Shown one piece after another: positions 1,012 through 59,826 of a stretch of 64,000 nucleotides of DNA. Position numbers and translations under genes: made by a program. Each line of letters starts with the position of its first letter. Within the stretch, counting starts at the first letter, position 1. The stretch spans positions 76,095 to 140,094 of the forward strand of contig JAZRHI010000015.1 of NCBI GenBank assembly GCA_045644685.1, written 5' to 3'. The stretch comes from Candidatus Onthomorpha sp. GTDB lineage: Bacteria; Bacteroidota; Bacteroidia; Bacteroidales; P3. The notes beneath the pieces were generated by a model. That model made no database searches, was not told the origin of the DNA, and saw only the letters and a program-made list of their open reading frames with translations.

Positions 1012-1116
1012 AAAATTCTCTTAGCTTTTTTGGATTTTTCCTAAGAAAAAAAATATTTTCTCTAAGAGATAATTTTCTAAACCTTAGGTTTAAAAAGATA
1101 AATCTAAGACATAAAA
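1012..1116. repeat. 21-nt-phased CTWAG mini-array A (5 units)
   Basis: Cores CTTAG 1020-1024, CTAAG 1041-1045, CTAAG 1062-1066, CTTAG 1083-1087, CTAAG 1104-1108, spaced exactly 21 nt. A/T-tract flanks. Lies between the convergent ALDH and M16 genes and abuts hairpin 1117-1145. Confidence 0.9.
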
Positions 1117-1145
1117 AAAGGGAACGGCTAATTGCCATTCCCTTT
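1111..1145 (-). terminator. Intrinsic terminator of the M16 peptidase gene
   Basis: Stem GGGAA(C)GGC 1120-1128 pairs with GCC(A)TTCCC 1134-1142, loop TAATT. On the minus strand it is followed by a T-run (plus-strand A-run 1111-1119). Confidence 0.7.
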
Positions 1146-4968: not shown

Positions 4969-4998
4969 TAATGATTTTTAATAACTGCCAAATTTTTT

Positions 4999-5016
4999 AC
5001 GATAAATTTTTATCGT
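4999..5016. promoter_or_regulatory. Palindrome ACGATAAA-TT-TTTATCGT, candidate operator
   Basis: Perfect 8+8 inverted repeat about 30-50 nt upstream of the -7 box of the operon that encodes the XRE-type regulator. No adjacent U-run, so it is not a typical terminator. Confidence 0.3.
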
Positions 5017-5050
5017 TTATCAATAAATATTTGTCTTTTTTCGGTAAAAT

Positions 5051-5653: not shown

Positions 5654-6202
5654 TTATTCAGCTGGTGTTTCAGTTGCTTCTGCTGCTACTTCTTCGGTTG
5701 CAGGAGCTTCTTCTGCTGTTTCTGCAGCTACTGCCGCTGCTGCTTCTTCTCTTTTCTTAGCTATAGCTGCTGCTTTTGCTGCATTAACTTCTGCTTCTTT
5801 TGCTAAACGTTGTTTAGCGTCTTCTTTTTGTGCGTTTCTGCAAGATTCTTGTTTAGCAGATATTTTGTTGTTCTTTTCAAGTAACCAAGCTTCAAATTTT
5901 TTGTCTGCTACATCTTGTGTAATTGCGCCTTTTTCAACTCCAATTTGTAAGTGTCTTTTTAATAACACCCCTTTGTATGACAAAATGTTTCTTGCTGTTT
6001 CTGTTGGTTGAGCTCCGTTTTTCAACCATGTGCAAGCGCTATCTACATTCAAGTCAATAGTTGCAGGGTTTGTCATTGGGTCGTATGTTCCCAACTTTTC
6101 AATAAATTTTCCATCACGTGCTGCACGAGCATCCGCAACAACGATATGATAAAAAGGTGCTCCTTTTTTACCGTGACGTTGTAATCTAATTTTTACTGCC
6201 AT
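5654..6202 (-). CDS. rpsP: 30S ribosomal protein S16 with long Ala/Glu/Lys-rich C-terminal tail
   Basis: [42 protein letters not shown] is canonical bS16. A roughly 90-aa charged tail follows. Confidence 0.95.
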
Positions 6203-6266: not shown

Positions 6267-7661
6267 TTATTTTGAAATAATCCAATCTTCTTCTGTTGTC
6301 CACGTTTTTTTGATGACTATGTTTTTGTTGTAAATAAATACTTTTTCGCTTTCTTCCAGTGTGTTAAAGTTTGCTTTGTCCCATTGTTTGTTACAATTTT
6401 GGTCTATTGCAATTTTCGCTTTGTAAGTGCCTTCTTTGAGATATTTAAAGGTGATTGTGTTGGTGTTTTTCGGCATTTGTTCTTCTAAAACTATCTTTCC
6501 TGCCATGTTATATAAGTAACAAATATAGCAAGCATTGTTTGAAATTGAGTCTTTTATGTTTAGGGTTAGGCTTCCGTAATATTCTGGTGAAGAGTTATAG
6601 AATTTGTGTTTGTATTCTTTGTTTTTTTGATTGTAAATGTTGCTTATGCTATTTGCTTTTATGATTATTTCATGTTGTTTCGCTACATCTAAATTGCTAA
6701 TGAAAGAATAGATTGTGTCATTCGTTTTTGTGAAATTTACTTCCGTAGTGTCGCTGTCTTTTATCAAAAGGGCAGGGAAGGAGTCTGTGGAAAGGGTGTC
6801 TTTAAATACTAAATCGTAACGTCCTTTGAAAAAGTCGAGGGTGTCTTTTTCGTATTTATTGATATGAAATAAAGTATCCCTTTTTTCTTGCTTAGAAGGG
6901 TTTTGTAAATTCTCTGTTTTTTCTTCAACAAAGGCGGTGTAATAGAATTTTTGTTTTTGAAGTCTTGTTTTTGCTGTGGAGTCTGGAAGATAGGGTTTAA
7001 GGATTTCGTTAGAAAATCCAATACCTTCGTTCGCTAAGTCGTATATTTTGTTTTGGTTTTTATCGTCTAATATAAAGAGTTTATATTCTCCGTTTGCAAG
7101 GTTATGAAATCTGAAAACGCCATTGCTATCTGTCTTTGTCAAATAGTCAGATGGGTTTTTCTTTATGTAAGTTGTGTCGAAATTTGAATACAATAGGACA
7201 TATTTGTTTGGAATTGCTGTTAGCTCAAAGGCATCTAAAATTTTTCCTTCGTACCATAGCGTGTCAATATGGTCGCCTGTGGAAAAGGCAAAGGAGAATC
7301 CGTTTAGGCGATTGCCTTCATTGTTATCTTTTATGGCATTTGCAAAGTCTATTATATAGGTTGTGTTTTCTTTTAGCGAGTCTAAGCCTTTTATGTGTAT
7401 GCTTTTGAGGTTTGAGGTTATCTCCGGATTTGGTTTTATTTGAGGAGAAATCAATACATTCGTATTAGGATTTTCTAAAACAATGTATTCGTTAAACTTT
7501 ATTTCGATTTCGTTTCCTTTAAAGTTTATACTGTTCTGATAAGGCTTGCTATCAACAAACACAGGTGGCTGATTGTCTTTTGGACCTCCGCTTGGAGTTA
7601 CAATCTTTGCGCAAGAAAATATCAGAAAACTTGTAAAAAATATCGCAACTAATCTATTCAT
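6267..7661 (-). CDS. Lipoprotein with bacterial Ig-like (Big_5/SbsA-type) domain
   Basis: 464 aa. Lipoprotein signal MNRLVAIFFTSFLIFSC. The SGGPKDNQPPVFVDSKP... segment is typical of Big_5 lipoproteins. Confidence 0.6.
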   Translation of the reverse strand: MNRLVAIFFTSFLIFSCAKIVTPSGGPKDNQPPVFVDSKPYQNSINFKGNEIEIKFNEYIVLENPNTNVLISPQIKPNPEITSNLKSIHIKGLDSLKENTTYIIDFANAIKDNNEGNRLNGFSFAFSTGDHIDTLWYEGKILDAFELTAIPNKYVLLYSNFDTTYIKKNPSDYLTKTDSNGVFRFHNLANGEYKLFILDDKNQNKIYDLANEGIGFSNEILKPYLPDSTAKTRLQKQKFYYTAFVEEKTENLQNPSKQEKRDTLFHINKYEKDTLDFFKGRYDLVFKDTLSTDSFPALLIKDSDTTEVNFTKTNDTIYSFISNLDVAKQHEIIIKANSISNIYNQKNKEYKHKFYNSSPEYYGSLTLNIKDSISNNACYICYLYNMAGKIVLEEQMPKNTNTITFKYLKEGTYKAKIAIDQNCNKQWDKANFNTLEESEKVFIYNKNIVIKKTWTTEEDWIISK

Positions 7662-7666
7662 ATTTG

Positions 7667-7674
7667 CAAAGGTA
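7667..7674 (-). promoter_or_regulatory. -7 box (TACCTTTG) only 5 nt from the ATG of the Ig-like lipoprotein gene
   Basis: The minus strand reads TACCTTTGcaaatATG, which implies a leaderless or near-leaderless mRNA if the box is used. Confidence 0.35.
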
Positions 7675-7684
7675 AGAAATAAAT

Positions 7685-7768
7685 TTCGTTTTCTTAGGTT
7701 TAGAAAAATATTTCTTAGGTTTAGAAAATTATTCCTAAGGATTAAAAAAATAACTCTTAGCTTTATTT
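7685..7768. repeat. 21-nt-phased CTWAG mini-array B (4 units)
   Basis: Cores 7693-7697, 7714-7718, 7735-7739, 7756-7760 (21-nt spacing). The fourth unit is the left arm of the 18-bp hairpin, whose right arm carries CTAAG 7782-7786. Confidence 0.92.
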
Positions 7769-7793
7769 GAGCAATATAAAGCTAAGAGTTATT
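7741..7793 (-). terminator. Strong intrinsic terminator of nhaD built from two inverted repeat units
   Basis: Perfect 18-bp stem, 7749-7766 with 7776-7793, 9-nt loop. T-run follows on the minus strand (plus-strand A-run 7744-7750). Confidence 0.8.
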
Positions 7794-7816
7794 GTAATTA
7801 TAATATAGTTTTTAAA

Positions 7817-11230: not shown

Positions 11231-12535
11231 TTATTTCTTAATAAAGATTTTAGATTTGCTCATCCACATCATTAACAAACTTCTTCCTGATAAGTAAATT
11301 AGAAAGGCTAACCATAGGGCGTTGTTGCCAATTAAAGGGGTGAGAGTGAAATATATAAGAAAAAAAAGTAGGGTTGAAATAAAGATTGCATTTCTCATTA
11401 TAACAGATTCTGTTAATCCGATAAGAATTCCGTCATATAGGAAAGCGATAAAGCCGGTTATAGGAATTAGTAAAATCCAGTAAAGGAATTTTGTAGAATA
11501 TTCAAGAACGTCTTTATTATCTGTAAATATCATTAAGATGTTTTCGCCAAAAATGGCATATATAATAATGAATAGAATTGATATTGCACTACCCCACAAA
11601 AGGAAGCGTTTGACATAGTTCTTTAATAGGTTGTAATTGTTTTCGCCTTTGGCTTTTCCGCAGAGAGATTCGGCAGCGTAGGCAAATCCGTCCATGAAAT
11701 AGGAGAATAGGGTAAAGAATTGCATTAAAAGGGTGTTCATTGCTAAGGTCGGATATGGCATTTTGGTAGATGCTATGGTGAAATAGCTTGTTACTATTAT
11801 CAAACAGAGTGTTCTTAGAAAGATATCGGAATTTACTTTGAAGAATAGTTTCATCTTTTCTAAGGAAAGGGCTTTTTTTAGGTTGAAATATTTTGTTATG
11901 TTTCCGTATTTCTTTCTCCATATTATGAGTGTGGTAATCAATCCTCCGTATTGTGCTATCACTGTGCCTAAGGCTACTCCTTTTATCGACATATTGCAAT
12001 AGAATACAAGGATGAAGCTGAATGCTATGTTGAGTATGTTGATTATTATCGAAATCCACATCGGGTTTTTCGAGTCTTGCATTCCTATGAACCAGCCTTT
12101 GAGTGCGTACATGCCGAGTGTGGCTGGCGCTGCCCAGATTCTGATTGAGAAATAGCTGAGTGCTAATGCTCCGACTGAGTTTTTGTCTTCTATTAGCATG
12201 AGAGAGAGTTTGCCGATGGGCTTTTGGAAGACTATTAGTAAGAATGCGGCTGCGATTGCAATGAAGCTTGCTCTTAAAAGTATGTTTGCTTGTTCTTGAA
12301 CGTCTTTTGAGCCGTATGCTTGTGCGGTAAATCCGCTTGTTCCCATTCTTAGAAATCCGAAGTTCCAATAAATGATATTGAAAATCATGGTTCCAACGGC
12401 TATTGCTCCAATATAGTCTATGCCGTCGCCATTATTTAGGTGTCCAACAATGGCTGTATCGACCATTCCTAAAAGAGGAACGGTTATGTTGGTGATAATG
12501 TTTGGTATTGCTAATCTTAGGATTTGCTTGTTCAT
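11231..12535 (-). CDS. MATE-family efflux transporter
   Basis: 434 aa, 12 predicted TM helices. N-terminus ILRLAIPNIITNITVPLLGMVDTAIVGHL is typical MATE. The start shares one nt (TAATG) with the upstream gene's stop. Confidence 0.85.
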   Translation of the reverse strand: MNKQILRLAIPNIITNITVPLLGMVDTAIVGHLNNGDGIDYIGAIAVGTMIFNIIYWNFGFLRMGTSGFTAQAYGSKDVQEQANILLRASFIAIAAAFLLIVFQKPIGKLSLMLIEDKNSVGALALSYFSIRIWAAPATLGMYALKGWFIGMQDSKNPMWISIIINILNIAFSFILVFYCNMSIKGVALGTVIAQYGGLITTLIIWRKKYGNITKYFNLKKALSLEKMKLFFKVNSDIFLRTLCLIIVTSYFTIASTKMPYPTLAMNTLLMQFFTLFSYFMDGFAYAAESLCGKAKGENNYNLLKNYVKRFLLWGSAISILFIIIYAIFGENILMIFTDNKDVLEYSTKFLYWILLIPITGFIAFLYDGILIGLTESVIMRNAIFISTLLFFLIYFTLTPLIGNNALWLAFLIYLSGRSLLMMWMSKSKIFIKK

Positions 12536-13248
12536 TATTTCTTTTTTGAAAATAATGAGGTGTAGTATTTATAGTGCCATATAATATGTATAAGGGCGAT
12601 AATCGTCATGGCAATTCCAAATTCAACGTGCCATTTCAAAAAGTCTCTATACCAATCCATGCAGAAACCATAGTTTATCTGTAATGCCAAAATAAATCCC
12701 AATAGACAAGAAACTAAGAATGTTAAAAGAAGAATTACATTCCATAGTTTTCTGTGAGTAAGCTTTTTTATCTTGTTTGTTTTGACTAAGATATAGGTTG
12801 TAAGGTAAGCAATCAAAACGGCAATCGTTATGGCAATTATGCGATATGGCTTCTTTGATTTTTTTTCCTTAGGTTTAGAAAAATTTTCCTTAGGAATATT
12901 TTTTTCTTCCTTAGGAATAATTTTTTCTTCCTTAGAGATATTTTTTTCTGTCTTTACAACGTCTTTTTCTTGTGTAGAAATTGTTGTTTTCTTTGGTGTG
13001 ATTTCTATTTCTTTTTTTGTTTCAATCGGTGCAACCTCTGTTTGAGTTTCTGTTGTTGGCTCTTGGCTTTGGGTTAATCCGTTGTCGCAAAATGAATCTT
13101 CGTTTTCATCAATAAATCTGCCACACTCGCCTAAACAATTATACTTTTCGCCAAATGGACATTGTGCTTCAAGCGATAGAAATGCGAAAGAAAATAACGC
13201 AAAGCATAAAAGCGATAATAATCTCTTTGATTTAGTATTGGTTTTCAT
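12535..13248 (-). CDS. Hypothetical membrane protein (signal peptide, Cys-rich module, K/E-rich heptad linker, C-terminal TM helices)
   Basis: 237 aa. MKTNTKSKRLLSLLCFALFSFAFLSLEA signal and a CPFGEKYNCLGECGRFIDENEDSFCDNG module. The linker ISKEEKIIPKEEKNIPKENFSKPKEKK is encoded by mini-array C. Three hydrophobic helices at the C-terminus. Confidence 0.6.
   Translation of the reverse strand: MKTNTKSKRLLSLLCFALFSFAFLSLEAQCPFGEKYNCLGECGRFIDENEDSFCDNGLTQSQEPTTETQTEVAPIETKKEIEITPKKTTISTQEKDVVKTEKNISKEEKIIPKEEKNIPKENFSKPKEKKSKKPYRIIAITIAVLIAYLTTYILVKTNKIKKLTHRKLWNVILLLTFLVSCLLGFILALQINYGFCMDWYRDFLKWHVEFGIAMTIIALIHIIWHYKYYTSLFSKKK
12860..12943. repeat. 21-nt-phased CTWAG mini-array C (4 units) inside a CDS
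   Basis: CTTAG at 12868-12872, 12889-12893, 12910-12914 and 12931-12935. Read in frame on the minus strand (CCT AAG = Pro-Lys) as heptads of the 237-aa membrane protein. Confidence 0.9.
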
Positions 13249-19134: not shown

Positions 19135-19197
19135 AAATAATCCTAAGAAATAAAAAATTAAACCTAAGGAAGAAAAAAATATTCCTTAGGAAAAAAA
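19135..19197. repeat. 21-nt-phased CTWAG mini-array D (3 units)
   Basis: CTAAG 19143-19147, CTAAG 19164-19168, CTTAG 19185-19189. Starts about 17 nt after the mutase terminator. A degenerate CTTTG sits in register at 19122-19126. Confidence 0.85.
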
Positions 19198-19353
19198 ACT
19201 TCAAAAAAGTATGTGCATATATAAACAATAGACAATCTAATAATTTCCTTTGAAATGATAGCGAAAGGTTGGGCTAACGCACGCGGTCATAAACACCCCG
19301 AAACAGTAAATATTGTTATGAAATAACCAACCATTCCATAAACGAAATAAAAA

Positions 19354-23617: not shown

Positions 23618-24367
23618 ATGGAAAAAAATCAAATAATCTACGGCTTACGTCCCGTAATGGAAGCAATAAAAGCGGGAAAACAAATAGACAAGATATATTT
23701 ACAAAGCAATTTGCAAGGAAAACTTTTCACAGAATTAAAAGCCTTGATAAAACAAAGCGGAAAGAATATTCAACAACAATATGTTCCTCTTGAAAAGCTT
23801 GACTATCTTTCAAGAAAACAAAATCATCAAGGAGTGGTAGCACAACTTTCTCAAATAGTTTATTGGGAACTTGAAGATATGCTTGAACATGCGGAAAGAA
23901 AAAGCACAAAGCCTTTCTTAATCTACCTTGATAATGTAACAGATGTTAGAAATCTTGGAGCAATAGCAAGAAGTGCCGAATGCGCAGGCGTAGATGGTTT
24001 GATAATTCCGCAACAAGGCTCAGCGCCTATAAATCAAGACGCAATAAAAACGTCAGCTGGTGCTTTATTAAGGCTACCTGTTTGCAGAATTAGCAACCTT
24101 AAAACATTTATCAATACAATCAAGGCACACGATATTAAAATCTATTCTGCAAGTGAAAAGGCTAACAGTTTATACACACAAGTTAATGCAGAAGAACCGC
24201 TAATGATAGTAATGGGTAGCGAAGAAAGCGGAGTAAGTCAAACAATGATAAAAATGTCTGACGAATTGATAAAAATACCTATGAATGGCGAAATAGAAAG
24301 TCTTAATGTTTCGGCAGCCGCTTCCGTATTGCTTTTCGAGGTTGTTAGACAGAGATTAGGAATTTAA
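23618..24367 (+). CDS. rlmB: 23S rRNA 2'-O-ribose methyltransferase, SpoU/TrmH family (RlmB-like)
   Basis: 249 aa. N-terminal substrate-binding domain (IYGLRPVMEAI) and the SpoU knot region (GSEESGVS...IPMNGEIESLNVSAAASVLLFE). Confidence 0.8.
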   Translation: MEKNQIIYGLRPVMEAIKAGKQIDKIYLQSNLQGKLFTELKALIKQSGKNIQQQYVPLEKLDYLSRKQNHQGVVAQLSQIVYWELEDMLEHAERKSTKPFLIYLDNVTDVRNLGAIARSAECAGVDGLIIPQQGSAPINQDAIKTSAGALLRLPVCRISNLKTFINTIKAHDIKIYSASEKANSLYTQVNAEEPLMIVMGSEESGVSQTMIKMSDELIKIPMNGEIESLNVSAAASVLLFEVVRQRLGI

Positions 24368-25257
24368 GCATTGCAAAAAACGCCTAACTTATATAAATTA
24401 AAAATAAAAAGACTTGGATTTTTTTTGGCAAGAAGGCTTAACATAAGTCTTCTTGTCATTTTAAAGAATAGGGCATATAATCCCACTAAATGTAGCCTTT
24501 CAAGACGGTTGTAAACACTTACAATTTTAATCCTTAGGATTATTTTTTTATTTCTTAGGTTTAATTTTTTATTTCTTAGGTTTAGAAAAATATTTCTTAG
24601 GTTTATTACAGCGTTTTCATTAGAAGAAATAAAATCCTCAAACTTCTTTAAACCTAAGTGTTCAACAGGATTGTCTATATTTAAGAAAGAAAATCCAATT
24701 TCTTCAAAATCACACTTAAATAAGGTGTCTTCGTGTCCGTAACCTTTGATGTCTTCACGAAAACGTATGGAAGAAAAAACCGATTTACGAATACAAAAGT
24801 TATTAGTTGTAAACATATCTTTGTTTTTCAAACCTTTGTTTGCTTCAATCAATGTTCCATACTTCCAATGTAGTTCATAGCCTTTTGGACATTTAGATTT
24901 TTCGCAATAAACCGTACCTCCTCTTACCAAATCCTTAGTTTCTATTTCGTTTAAATAACGTTTCAAGAAATCATCTCTTACAATCTTGCTGTCGCCGTCA
25001 AGAAATATTAAAATATCTCCCTTAGCCTCGTCAGCCAAAAGGTTTCTTATTCGTGAGCGACCAAGGTTTTCTTTCAGCTCTCTATAATCCACCTTGTCAA
25101 ATTGTGCAATAGCTTTGTTGTCTTCGCATTTTATTGGAGAACAATCGTCAAAGACTAAAATTTCATAATCACAACTTAATTCCTTTGCTTGCTTTACTAA
25201 GTCGTTTACTAAATTTACGCAATTTTCTTGATAGATAGGAATGAGTATAGAAAGCAT
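24364..25257 (-). CDS. Family-2 glycosyltransferase; the 3' quarter runs through mini-array E
   Basis: MLSILIPIYQENCVN... with FDD and a DxD-like FLDGDS motif. C-terminal NLRNIFLNLRNKKLNLRNKKIILRIKIV is array-encoded, so the true C-terminus is uncertain. Confidence 0.7.
   Translation of the reverse strand: MLSILIPIYQENCVNLVNDLVKQAKELSCDYEILVFDDCSPIKCEDNKAIAQFDKVDYRELKENLGRSRIRNLLADEAKGDILIFLDGDSKIVRDDFLKRYLNEIETKDLVRGGTVYCEKSKCPKGYELHWKYGTLIEANKGLKNKDMFTTNNFCIRKSVFSSIRFREDIKGYGHEDTLFKCDFEEIGFSFLNIDNPVEHLGLKKFEDFISSNENAVINLRNIFLNLRNKKLNLRNKKIILRIKIVSVYNRLERLHLVGLYALFFKMTRRLMLSLLAKKNPSLFIFNLYKLGVFCNA
24525..24608. repeat. 21-nt-phased CTWAG mini-array E (4 units) inside the GT2 ORF
   Basis: CTTAG at 24533-24537, 24554-24558, 24575-24579 and 24596-24600. 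Positions 24572-24605 are identical to 7690-7723. Confidence 0.92.
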
Positions 25258-28202: not shown

Positions 28203-28210
28203 CAAAGGTA
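28203..28210 (-). promoter_or_regulatory. -7 box (TACCTTTG) for the WecA/MraY-like gene cluster
   Basis: Reverse complement of caaaggta. 25 nt upstream of ATG 28178. Confidence 0.5.
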
Positions 28211-28211
28211 G

Positions 28212-28295
28212 TATTTTTCCTTAGAAAAAAAGCATATTTTCTAAGAATTAAGTTTTTTTATTTAAGGTTTGTGATTTTTTTTCTTAGGATTAAAT
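28212..28295. repeat. 21-nt-phased CTWAG mini-array F (3 canonical units plus 1 degenerate)
   Basis: CTTAG 28220-28224, CTAAG 28241-28245, degenerate TTAAG 28262-28266, CTTAG 28283-28287. Fills the space between divergent -7 boxes at 28203-28210 (minus) and 28305-28312 (plus). Confidence 0.85.
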
Positions 28296-28304
28296 TTTTT
28301 TTTG

Positions 28305-28312
28305 TAATTTTG
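28305..28312 (+). promoter_or_regulatory. -7 box (TAATTTTG) for guaA
   Basis: Exact TAnnTTTG match about 52 nt upstream of ATG 28364. Confidence 0.5.
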
Positions 28313-37113: not shown

Positions 37114-37199
37114 AAAAATAAGTCAAAGAAAAAATAAAATAAATCAAAGGAATAAAAAAATAAAACAAAGAAAAAATGAAAAAAAGCTTAGGAATATTT
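37076..37199. repeat. Degenerate 21-nt-phased array J (about 6 units) bridging two CDSs
   Basis: In-register pentamers CTAAA 37103-37107, CAAAG 37124-37128, 37145-37149 and 37166-37170, CTTAG 37187-37191. A TCTTTAAGGTTTAGAAA unit at 37081-37097 is about 2 nt off register. Confidence 0.55.
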
Positions 37200-45221: not shown

Positions 45222-45305
45222 ATTTTTCTCTTAGGTTTATTAAAATAAAGCTAAGGAATAATTTTCTAAACCTAAGAAATAATTTTCTATCTCTTAGGTT
45301 TAAAA
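45222..45305. repeat. 21-nt-phased CTWAG mini-array G (4 units, mixed orientation)
   Basis: CTTAG 45230-45234, CTAAG 45251-45255, CTAAG 45272-45276, CTTAG 45293-45297. Units 2-3 are reverse complements of the canonical unit. The nearest core is about 25 nt upstream of the rtcB ATG. Confidence 0.92.
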
Positions 45306-45419
45306 AATAGAATAGGCTTTCTGTATTTTTAGCACCGATAAACGTGTCTTGATCGTAATAAGGGCTAAATATTAACTTCATGTTTTGTATATTAAATAAA
45401 TGTTTTAGGTTTTGTTTTG

Positions 45420-52912: not shown

Positions 52913-52975
52913 TCTATTTCCTTAGAGATAATGGAAAAATCCTTAGGAATAATAAAATAATCCTTAGAAAAAATG
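52913..52975. repeat. 21-nt-phased CTWAG mini-array H (3 units)
   Basis: CTTAG at 52921-52925, 52942-52946 and 52963-52967. Lies between the rpmB terminator and the thioesterase ATG (52973). Confidence 0.85.
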
Positions 52976-53389
52976 GCAGTTTCTTTTGATTATAAATTTA
53001 GAGTCAGCTATGTCGATACAGATAAAATGGGCGTAGTTCATAATAGCAATTACTTCCGCTTTTTTGAGAGGGGAAGAATTGAACTTATGAGATATATAGG
53101 TGTTAGTTATAAAGACATGGAAGACAATGGTATTATGATGCCTTTGATTGAGCAATATGCAAAATATTTAAAGCCAGCATACTTTGATGAAGAGTTGATA
53201 ATCAGAACTTCTATAAGTAAAATGCCTACTGCAAAAATAAGATTTGATTATAAAGTGTTAAGAAAGCAGGAAGGAGAATCAGAAGTGTTGTGTGAAGGCT
53301 ATAATTTATTAGCGTTTATTGACGATAAAACAAGAAGGCCACATCCTTGTCCGTTGTGGATTGTAGAAAAATTGAGCAAAATTTTGTAG
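52973..53389 (+). CDS. Acyl-CoA thioesterase, 4HBT/YbgC family
   Basis: 138 aa. VSYVDTDKMGVVHNSNYFRFFERGRIELM hot-dog fold motif. Confidence 0.8.
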   Translation: MAVSFDYKFRVSYVDTDKMGVVHNSNYFRFFERGRIELMRYIGVSYKDMEDNGIMMPLIEQYAKYLKPAYFDEELIIRTSISKMPTAKIRFDYKVLRKQEGESEVLCEGYNLLAFIDDKTRRPHPCPLWIVEKLSKIL

Positions 53390-58576: not shown

Positions 58577-58660
58577 ATTTTTCTCTAAGAAATAATCCAT
58601 TTTCTCTTAGGAATATTTTTCTAATCCTTAGCTTTATTAAATTATTCCTTAGACTTATTT
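58577..58660. repeat. 21-nt-phased CTWAG mini-array I (4 units)
   Basis: CTAAG 58585-58589, then CTTAG at 58606-58610, 58627-58631 and 58648-58652. Starts 10 nt after terminator 58538-58567 and ends at the stop codon of the convergent arginase-fold gene. Confidence 0.9.
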
Positions 58661-59826
58661 TATATATTCAATTTATTATAAGCTATAAGCCATCTATCGG
58701 GAATGTGGTTCTCCATTGTGGCTTTGTAATCGTCGTAAGTGCATGGTACAAGGTAGTGTCTAATGTATTTTTGTTGCATTTCCATATTGCATTGCACCTG
58801 CATCCACCAGCGTTCGCTTTTCTTGCTTTTGTAAAATACTATTGTGTCTTCGTTTTCTAATATTACGTTGAAGCGATAGTAGTTGTTTATGTCTTTATAT
58901 GGGAAGTCATTTTTTCTCCATAGGTATCCGTCAATAAAATACCAAAGGGCATGAGATATTATCTTTGCAGTGCGATTGTCAATGTCCTTTCCAGCGTCGT
59001 AATTGAATATTCCAATAGAGGAGAGTTTGTCGCTCATTCCAGCAAAGTTTAGAAGCTTACAGAATTCTTCCCCATATAATCCGTGAGGAGAGTTACTGCA
59101 TGGAGCATCACTTGCTCTTATTGAGTTTATATCGGCAATAAGCATATCGCAATTTCGGATTAGTGGTTCTGCATTTTCAATATGTTTTTGAATTTCACCT
59201 AATCGATATGCTTCAAATCGTATATCTTGCAATAGTTTTAAGACTTTGCTTTCTACAAAATAGGACTGATATGCTATATGTGTGTAATTGAATAGGTAAT
59301 TAGGGTCGCTACAAAATATATGAGGTAAGAAATTGTCGTTTTTAGCATCTTTATCTAAGTCTTTTATGTCTATTCGAGAGTCTATATTGAGTATATTTAT
59401 TATTTGTCCTATTGATTCATAGCCTTTGTAGATTCCTATTGCATTATCATTGCTTCCGCCTATTACAATAGGGATTATTTGGTTTTGAAGCAAGAAAGAA
59501 CAAACTTCTCCTAAGGCAAAGTAAGTGTCTTTAAGAGTTTGTCCTGATTTTAAGTTACCTAAGTCTATTATTTTTAAAGTATTGTTATGTTGTTTTAACT
59601 GATAGAATTCTTGTCTTATATTGTCTGCTGCAATAGTGCAAGTTTTTTGATTATCTCCTCTGCATTCACTAAGTCCTATTATAGCCATATTTGCTTTAAG
59701 GTCAGCACTGCTGATATTATTCATAGTGCTATTGCAAAGAATGTTATCGCTCAAAGTTCCTTCCTCGTTATTGAGAAGTTTTAACTTTTCTATATCTACT
59801 TTTTCGAATAAATCTAATATTTCCAT
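58660..59826 (-). CDS. Arginase/formiminoglutamase-fold protein with C-terminal extension (metal ligands apparently substituted)
   Basis: 388 aa. Ureohydrolase-like motif order is VIGGSNDNAIG / NIDSRIDI / ADINSIRASDAP, against the canonical GGDH / DxHxD / DxDxxDP. TAATG overlap with murA. Confidence 0.6.
   Translation of the reverse strand: MEILDLFEKVDIEKLKLLNNEEGTLSDNILCNSTMNNISSADLKANMAIIGLSECRGDNQKTCTIAADNIRQEFYQLKQHNNTLKIIDLGNLKSGQTLKDTYFALGEVCSFLLQNQIIPIVIGGSNDNAIGIYKGYESIGQIINILNIDSRIDIKDLDKDAKNDNFLPHIFCSDPNYLFNYTHIAYQSYFVESKVLKLLQDIRFEAYRLGEIQKHIENAEPLIRNCDMLIADINSIRASDAPCSNSPHGLYGEEFCKLLNFAGMSDKLSSIGIFNYDAGKDIDNRTAKIISHALWYFIDGYLWRKNDFPYKDINNYYRFNVILENEDTIVFYKSKKSERWWMQVQCNMEMQQKYIRHYLVPCTYDDYKATMENHIPDRWLIAYNKLNI

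Follow-up and report, generated by a model that had tools for sequence, protein, structure and literature searches.

The linker array and its host gene

The stretch of DNA considered here (the window) comprises 64,000 nucleotides (nt; GC about 0.33) of Candidatus Onthomorpha sp., taken from contig JAZRHI010000015.1 (positions 76,095 to 140,094). Synteny and matches at the protein level place it among the uncultured Bacteroidales. The element in question is a head-to-tail run of four 21-nt units, whose core is CCTAAG, on the minus strand at 12860-12945, within the open reading frame (ORF) of a membrane protein of 237 amino acids (aa; 12535..13248, minus strand). I will refer to this run as the linker array, after the part of the protein that it encodes. 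Similar arrays are scattered through the window, and the linker array is probably a passenger copy of this family of concertedly evolving DNA repeats, its sequence driven at the level of DNA and tolerated in permissive segments of protein.

The units are centred at 12870, 12891, 12912 and 12933, and Tandem Repeats Finder (TRF) reports a period of 21 at 12886-12949 (3.0 copies, 90% matches). Laid out in a 21-nt register, the minus-strand cores are CCTAAG at 12868-12873, 12889-12894 and 12910-12915 and TCTAAG at 12931-12936, while the same print-out gives CCTTAGG, CCTTAGG, CCTTAGG and CCTTAGA on the plus strand. In the frame of the ORF, units 1 and 2 read ACA GAA AAA AAT ATC TCT AAG / GAA GAA AAA ATT ATT CCT AAG, and units 3 and 4 read GAA GAA AAA AAT ATT CCT AAG / GAA AAT TTT TCT AAA CCT AAG. 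The product, at residues ~102-130, is TEKNISK EEKIIPK EEKNIPK ENFSKPK EK, a series of x5-(S/P)-K heptads in a tether predicted to be disordered. The TAG or TAA within the core shuts one frame per strand and leaves two open, and it is an open one that the ORF uses. Since 21 nt equal 7 codons, gain or loss of a whole unit preserves the frame. An earlier note on this DNA had described just such an in-frame mini-array, with Pro-Lys (CCT AAG) heptads beginning at ISK and with one frame per strand closed by the core. All of this holds, as does the start that it assigned to the array, but the end it gave (12943) falls 2 nt short of the real one. The borders of the array are sharp at the level of DNA. 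A weak heptad pattern in the protein carries on upstream of it (QEKDVVK, KKTTIST).

The note was also right to treat the ORF as a genuine single gene. The protein has 153 homologues (E <= 1e-3) of like architecture, and all those aligned possess a signal peptide, a four-Cys module, a hypervariable linker of ~80-95 residues, of low complexity throughout the family, and a three-helix membrane domain. In the protein of the window (all coordinates on the minus strand) the signal peptide occupies aa 1-28 (MKTNTKSKRLLSLLCFALFSFAFLSLEA; 13165..13248; predicted helix 5-27), with cleavage presumably before the Q that follows, an assumption based on the sequence and on general knowledge of signal peptides in Bacteroidota. 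The four-Cys module follows at aa 30-55 (CPFGEKYNCLGECGRFIDENEDSFCD; 13084..13161), its residues C30, C38, C42 and C54 invariant in the alignment. Next come the hypervariable tether, aa 56-133 (12850..13083), where disorder is predicted from a pLDDT (predicted local distance difference test) below 50 at residues 53-127, and the membrane domain, aa 134-237 (12538..12849), with H207, H221 and H225 invariant. Alignment and AlphaFold2 model thus both support the placement of the array between the Cys-rich module and the transmembrane helices, where it makes up the membrane-proximal third of the tether. The model has a pLDDT of 26-33 and no secondary structure across the array-encoded residues, and confident helices at 138-156, 162-193 and 197-224 (pLDDT 79-89). 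The protein would seem to be of an inner-membrane or periplasmic type rather than a surface antigen.

Any assignment of the protein to a named family is weak. Scans against Pfam and NCBIfam gave nothing above the cut-off (the best, Cytochrom_B561, had E 0.0074 and 17 bits versus a cut-off of 23), a precomputed match to PF27309 is labelled faint, one cluster member (P0273) is called "DUF4405 domain-containing protein" by NCBI, and Foldseek found no significant match to the model in the PDB. The gene is flanked by atpD on one side and by matE, yidC and citMHS on the other, an order kept in six other assemblies (L001, L002, L004, L005 and L007 among them). The start of the downstream matE gene (MATE efflux; 11231..12535, minus strand) overlaps the stop of the 237-aa gene by 1 base (TAATG, 12533-12537), which suggests that the two are translationally coupled.

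The same unit between genes and in a second gene

The core of the linker array is abundant well beyond this gene. CCTAAG occurs 54 times in the window, as compared to 21.65 +/- 4.96 in shuffled sequences, none of which (0/100) reaches 54. Neighbouring cores are spaced exactly 21 nt apart in ten instances, 42 nt in seven and 63 nt in two, where random sites would give 0.15 neighbours at 20-22 nt. Arrays were called by chaining together 5-mers (CTAAG/CTTAG) that stand 21 or 42 nt apart, which yielded nine, and a tenth has the core CAAAG. The window therefore holds at least ten phased mini-arrays, two of them in ORFs and eight between genes; of the intergenic gaps, 22 exceed 40 nt, and 8 of these contain an array. 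Expressed as density, this is eight arrays in 4.6 kb of intergenic DNA versus two in ~59 kb of coding DNA, a difference of about 50-fold. The number of 21-nt units per array is 3-5, and the unit itself is polar; its consensus, derived from 26 intergenic units, is AATTAAACCTAAGAAATAATA.

The second ORF with an array encodes a GT2 glycosyltransferase of 297 aa (24364..25257, minus strand; Pfam PF00535, E 2.2e-15), whose homologues are 290 and 297 aa long. Its four units (24525..24610, minus strand) cover aa 216-245 in a frame that reads AAC CTA AGA AAT, or N-L-R-N, and the peptide is AVINLRN IFLNLRN KKLNLRN KKIILRI. The linker and GT2 arrays are translated in different frames, and the same DNA consequently gives two unrelated peptides (the segments spanned are EEKIIPKEEKNIPKENFSKPK in the linker gene and NLRNKKLNLRNKK in GT2). 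In the model of the glycosyltransferase (pLDDT 91) the array covers the end of a helix at 206-230, a break at 231-233 and a helix at 234-241, with a dip in pLDDT to 68-82. Within the C-terminal half, no part is less conserved or modelled with less confidence than this segment, and distant homologues have at the same position a segment that is equal in length and not repetitive. Both ORF arrays occupy permissive segments of their proteins.

The relationship of the ORF units to the intergenic ones was assessed by means of a position matrix trained on the 26 intergenic units alone, with the ORF units kept out of the training. The eight ORF units score 17.3-22.9 bits, the GT2 units taking ranks 1, 5, 7 and 8 and the linker units (20.6, 19.9, 20.3 and 17.3 bits) ranks 13, 14, 15 and 25, as compared to 15.4 bits for the best site outside arrays and 15.1 bits for the best of 10 shuffles. 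Positions in the register next to the linker units score from -1.8 down to -37. The segment at 12869-12895 matches the units at 7693 and 24596 at 25 of 27 bases, and the linker unit nearest the intergenic consensus is the one that encodes the least linker-like heptad, ENFSKPK. Codon choice is just as particular. The core Lys of the linker array is AAG in 4 of 4 instances (in the other 43 ORFs, 24% of all Lys are spelled AAG), while Lys outside the core is AAA in 5 of 5. Pro is CCT in 3 of 3 (37% usage), and the core Leu of the GT2 array is CTA in 4 of 4 (11% usage). Matrix, borders and codon choice together bear out the proposal that the linker array is a member of the same repeat as the intergenic arrays.

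Related genomes differ in the core that their arrays carry. Besides the window, the CTAAG core is found in L001 (atpD 96% identical in nucleotide sequence), L006 and L127/L128 (guaA 94.5%), while the core is CAAAG in L002/L007 (atpD 90%), L180 (rtcB 88.8%), L004/L005 (atpD 86%) and L126 (guaA 81%). Outside the core the unit is unchanged between lineages (AAACCTAAGAAATAATTTTCT versus AAAACAAAGAAATAATTTTCT). In the gap between guaA and the GT4 gene, the four units of the window align one to one with those of L126, with orientations conserved and the core alone changed to CAAAG, and in the gap between citMHS and the Big_5 gene the syntenic arrays of L002, L004 and L005 have CAAAG cores in the same orientations as in the window.

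The coding arrays change in the same way. The heptads of the linker gene end in TCT/CCT/CCT/CCT-AAG in the window and in TCA/TCA/ACA/TCA-AAG in L002/L007, the switched base being the four-fold degenerate third position of a Ser, Pro or Thr codon. Units 2 and 3 of GT2 have CTA AGA (Leu) in the window and CAA AGA (Gln) in L126. Unit 1 has CTA in both, as would be expected from the Asn-Leu at that position, which is conserved across the whole enzyme family. So far as assembled sequences can tell, then, the comparison shows both ORF arrays to follow the motif of their own genome, at synonymous sites and through changes of residue as well (Ser/Thr to Pro; Gln to Leu).

Not every relative has the array in this gene. 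L004/L005 possess intergenic arrays and a linker that is non-repetitive and of the same length, from which it follows that the family is older than its copy in the linker gene. The array-free orthologue P0014 has 238 aa versus 237 aa in the window, and given this equality in linker length the array did not lengthen the protein.

Intergenic arrays and changes in unit number

The eight intergenic arrays vary in size and setting. The one at 1012..1118 has five units of mixed orientation in a convergent gap, and another convergent gap is filled by four units at 58577..58662. The array at 7685..7770, three units together with a terminator stem, has the CitMHS terminator on one side and the Big_5 gene's -7 box on the other. 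Three units at 19135..19199 were recognised by TRF and by core chaining, and the array at 28212..28297 fills the gap between the divergent -7 boxes of the guaA and GT4 genes. The array at 37116..37196 is the one with CAAAG cores (three units) plus one CTTAGG, and runs into the ATG at 37176. Its last unit overruns that start codon, and the N-terminus MKKSLGIF therefore contains CTTAGG. Three units at 52913..52977 end on the ATG at 52973. Upstream of rtcB there are four units of mixed orientation (45222..45307) that are missing at L180 1-108 and L178 9905-10000 (rtcB 88.8% and 78.5% identical in nucleotide sequence), from which it appears that arrays are gained or lost at single loci.

Several features adjoin these arrays. 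A terminator-like hairpin at 7745-7795 (AACTCTTAGCTTTAT...ATAAAGCTAAGAGTT plus a T-run), conserved in four genomes, stands downstream of the CitMHS gene. Its stems contain CTTAG/CTAAG, and what seems to be a fourth unit of the array at 7685-7770 is in fact this hairpin. Boxes of the Bacteroidetes -7 type (TACCTTTG, TAATTTTG) directly adjoin arrays at 7661-7675 and at 28203-28210 / 28305-28312. Just ~8 nt separate the Big_5 box from the ATG of that gene, implying either that the leader is very short or that the start codon has been mis-set. A further 21-nt phased array with another core (TTTCGATAAA / TATCGAAAA) lies between rimM and a DUF2975 gene (window 4994-5048; also L002 15622-15668 and L004 18231-18286). 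Its core is kept despite the CTAAG/CAAAG difference between these lineages, and 21-nt phasing accordingly seems to be a general habit of their intergenic regions. Two coding repeats may be mentioned as well: the ribosomal protein S16 gene (5654..6202) has an Ala-rich C-terminal repeat at 5678-5774 with periods of 21 and 33 nt (27 and 30 in L002), and a coding region at the contig end of L002 (1-482) has a 126-nt tandem repeat (3.8 copies, 86-90% identity).

A general role as promoter elements was considered and rejected, since perfect TAnnTTTG boxes adjoin just two arrays, arrays are also found in 2 of 4 convergent gaps, and the cores are out of register with the -33 and -7 boxes. A role at the level of RNA was likewise set aside: there were 0 Rfam matches in the window, and folding is inconsistent. 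Hairpin potential follows the orientation of the units: fold z values range from -6.0 to -0.6, the linker array having -3.2, the GT2 array -0.8 and arrays with inverted units -6.0.

In a scan of species-representative genomes for three CTTAGG cores at 21 nt, the family-like loci among the matches listed were L072 5454-5518 and L123 2754-2839, AT-rich intergenic arrays with 21-nt spacing from one metagenome-assembled genome of "Candidatus Onthomorpha sp." (JAZLDH01). Most of the other matches listed were satellites of 7-mers and 21-mers, unrelated to the family and spread over many phyla. BLAST of the arrays against plasmid and phage records found no family matches, though the low-complexity filter may hide weak ones, and a 21-base pattern scan of viral contigs found none either, the matches being unrelated coding repeats. 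Nothing on 21-bp intergenic repeats in Bacteroidales came up in a search of the literature, and the family appears to be undescribed.

The number of units changes in whole steps. In the linker gene, L003 is set apart from L007 by one single-nucleotide polymorphism (SNP) and by the clean loss of 42 nt (two units) between direct repeats. The GT2 proteins P0138/P0318 have one 7-aa unit more than P0321 at 98% identity (297 vs 290 aa), and their extra unit is located elsewhere than the extra unit of the window, which has four units as compared to three in L127 (94% identity). Four genomes have 3, 2, 5 and 4 units in the array of the citMHS-Big_5 gap. On the other hand, all 11 full-length members listed for the 90% cluster of the window's protein have an unchanged linker, 10 of them being of 237 aa. 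The remaining member, of 244 aa, was considered as an allele with one more unit and rejected, since it differs by C-terminal read-through alone. All 15 listed members of the P0004 cluster have 237 aa. The changes in unit number are occasional slippage events and not fast phase variation. The expectation that units come and go without loss of frame, altering the length of the linker, is thus correct for the steps of 42 nt in L003 and of 21 nt in GT2, although rapid variation is not seen in the cluster to which the window belongs. By the same token, an alignment of orthologues does reveal absence of the array (in L004/L005) and variation in its unit number, but where the array is absent the linker is of the same length.

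Origin of the linker array

A dispersed DNA repeat tolerated in frame is a phenomenon of a known kind, and it is useful to place the 21-nt family among its possible relatives. Rickettsia palindromic elements (RPEs) are dispersed between genes and in frame inside unrelated genes, at places compatible with function (PMC10969869), and in this placement the two families agree. The earlier note drew the comparison with RPEs, but beyond placement it fails. An RPE is a palindromic block of ~150 bp, whereas the 21-nt family forms runs of direct units that are not consistently palindromic and have no terminal repeats; an RPE adds residues, whereas the linker array adds none relative to array-free orthologues; and the peptide of an RPE is conserved, whereas here heptads of the type IPKEEK stand against NLRNKK-type heptads in another frame. 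Nor do the arrays look like recent insertions of that sort, kept as they are at syntenic sites across species.

The relative nearest in taxon and unit size is BrickBuilt of Porphyromonas gingivalis, another member of the Bacteroidales, whose dispersed, spacer-free tandem arrays of 23-nt units are species-restricted and close to promoters and possess a leader and a tail (PMC4596501). The 21-nt arrays share the spacer-free units of ~21-23 nt, the restriction to species and the position beside promoters. They differ in that BrickBuilt has a leader, a tail and inverted-repeat ends, none of which is visible at the borders of the 21-nt arrays (these abut a conserved terminator and -7 boxes), and in that BrickBuilt is strictly intergenic (49-591 nt from genes), whereas 2 of the 10 arrays in the window lie in conserved ORFs. 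Alignments of syntenic gaps showed no target-site duplication and no terminal inverted repeats at array borders.

In behaviour the closest parallel, by analogy, would be with the uptake signal sequences (USS) of Pasteurellaceae and the DNA uptake sequences (DUS) of Neisseriaceae. These are over-represented, occur in coding DNA at poorly conserved residues and skew peptide content (PMC2817400), and sister clades have dialects of their own, set apart by a few positions of the core (PMC1626085, PMC3630211). The 21-nt family likewise has a motif over-represented on both strands, dialects of clades and AT-rich flanks, and its ORF copies sit at poorly conserved positions (the tether and the variable segment of GT2). 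The phased arrays of 3-5 units described here have no counterpart there, however: USS and DUS are found as single copies or inverted pairs, and 35-65% of them are in ORFs, as compared to the marked intergenic excess of the 21-nt family. No high-scoring single unit was found outside the arrays in the window, the best site there being at the level of shuffled sequence.

Coding minisatellites and dispersed variable number tandem repeats (VNTRs), such as the mycobacterial interspersed repetitive unit (MIRU) loci, are head-to-tail repeats with units that are multiples of three, and their copy number differs between close strains. The linker array, with its period of 21 and its differences in copy number between close relatives, fits that definition. 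Ordinary repeats of this class are locus-specific, and what is unusual about the 21-nt unit is that two unrelated genes have it in common with many non-coding loci, across which the core changes in concert. The lineage-specific core also appears to have rewritten codons and residues in two proteins.

It may be that the repeat belongs to the protein rather than to the DNA: a Lys/Glu/Pro heptad spacer, born of local tandem duplication and kept for the sake of the tether, whose likeness to the intergenic arrays is coincidental, CCT-AAG being simply an AT-rich spelling of Pro-Lys. The weak heptads upstream of the array and the low-complexity linkers of the whole family would suit such an origin, and so would a set of unrelated repeats that served as a negative control. 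Family-specific 21-base pattern scans of metagenome and viral sequences yielded 8 loci of the family type, of which 2 are the GT2 ORF, together with 41 + 5 unrelated K-P-K-K coding repeats. The latter were drawn from 241 million metagenome records and from viral contigs, with a pattern in which part of the unit is fixed. Among these unrelated marine and phage proteins (L131, L154 and L168 from marine metagenomes, L181-L185 from viral contigs), heptads or near-heptads of the K-P-K type carry the same 12-mer at 21 nt (AAACCTAAGAAA) and reach up to 19.6 bits on the same matrix. A Pro/Lys-rich linker can therefore mimic the motif, and similarity to the matrix is by itself insufficient against coincidence. 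Selection on the peptide, however, accounts poorly for a core Lys that always takes the minor codon AAG beside neighbours that take AAA, for a synonymous third position that tracks the intergenic core in both lineages, for the low linker-likeness of the unit nearest the intergenic consensus, for the sharp borders in the DNA, or for the use of the same unit by GT2 in another frame with rare CTA codons. I regard coincidence as unlikely.

A selfish mobile element, RPE-like or in the manner of miniature inverted-repeat transposable elements, might instead have jumped into the gene in frame and added its peptide. The family is dispersed and species-restricted, the rtcB array is present in the window and absent in L180 and L178, and arrays of mixed orientation can form long hairpins (z -6.0). 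Yet the same-orientation arrays of the ORFs are not palindromic (z -0.8 for GT2), there is no gain of length over array-free orthologues (and the three-unit forms of GT2, at 290 aa, equal distant homologues in length), and the ends and target duplications that transposition would leave are not visible in the syntenic-gap alignments, nor is a leader or tail. Between species whose genes are 81-90% identical, arrays at syntenic positions correspond unit by unit, and the plasmid, phage and viral collections gave 0 family matches. An insertion of this kind is improbable. Still harder to credit is an adaptive contingency locus, an array maintained for rapid variation in the length or phase of the tether of a surface-exposed protein. 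Whole-unit insertions and deletions do exist, as the linker gene of L003 and GT2 illustrate, but the linker is constant within both clusters described above, its host protein does not look like a surface antigen, and a cytoplasmic GT2 enzyme and non-coding arrays behave alike. Given that these also vary by units, such changes look like a general property of the repeat.

That the sequence of the array is set by DNA seems to me the probable explanation, and I put it no higher for several reasons, of which mimicry by Pro/Lys-rich linkers, just described, is one. The switch of core, in essence a single event in history, rests on four or five loci; local homogenisation may act on the units of an array, leaving fewer independent observations; the array at 37116-37196 retains CAAAG in the window itself, and the switch is to that extent incomplete. 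The sequences compared are all metagenome assemblies, and no trans-acting factor was identified. It is on these grounds that coincidence keeps a small share of the probability.

Under the DNA-driven explanation, a process acting on all arrays would set their sequence. The 21-bp period, equal to two helical turns, the polarity of the core and its concerted change point to a sequence-specific reader or to a process of conversion or drive. The candidates are a DNA-binding factor that reads a specific sequence and co-evolves with its sites, or else gene conversion or drive between arrays. As for the heptad peptide, it would be a tolerated by-product. Copies in ORFs would persist only in the two stop-free frames and in permissive segments, namely the disordered periplasmic tether and the tip of the helical hairpin of GT2, and their effect on the protein, a tether altered in length and charge, would probably be near neutral. 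A more specific version, which I offer tentatively and consider doubtful, would have a lineage-specific, sequence-reading factor (a DNA-binding protein or a machinery of uptake or conversion) land on the arrays as its phased sites. The preference of that factor would have shifted in the ancestor of this lineage from CAAAG to CTAAG, forcing parallel substitutions at dozens to hundreds of units across the genome and rewriting residues of proteins along the way. If this is true, a cis-trans co-evolution event would be visible in the proteome of an uncultured gut member of the Bacteroidales.

On a practical level, the arrays are natural 21-nt VNTR markers for strain typing, they will yield length variants of 7 residues and odd low-complexity segments in predicted proteins, and the CTAAG/CAAAG dialect is a handle for finding its reader by phylogenetic profiling. 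The arrays fill about a third of intergenic regions, abut promoter boxes and terminators and keep a phase of two helical turns, and they therefore probably matter for the architecture of the chromosome or of promoters. A dispersed repeat system of such a kind is apparently without earlier description in the uncultured Bacteroidales of the ruminant gut. In it a non-coding DNA motif, rather than the function of the protein, appears to shape protein sequence, a natural case of overlapping codes.

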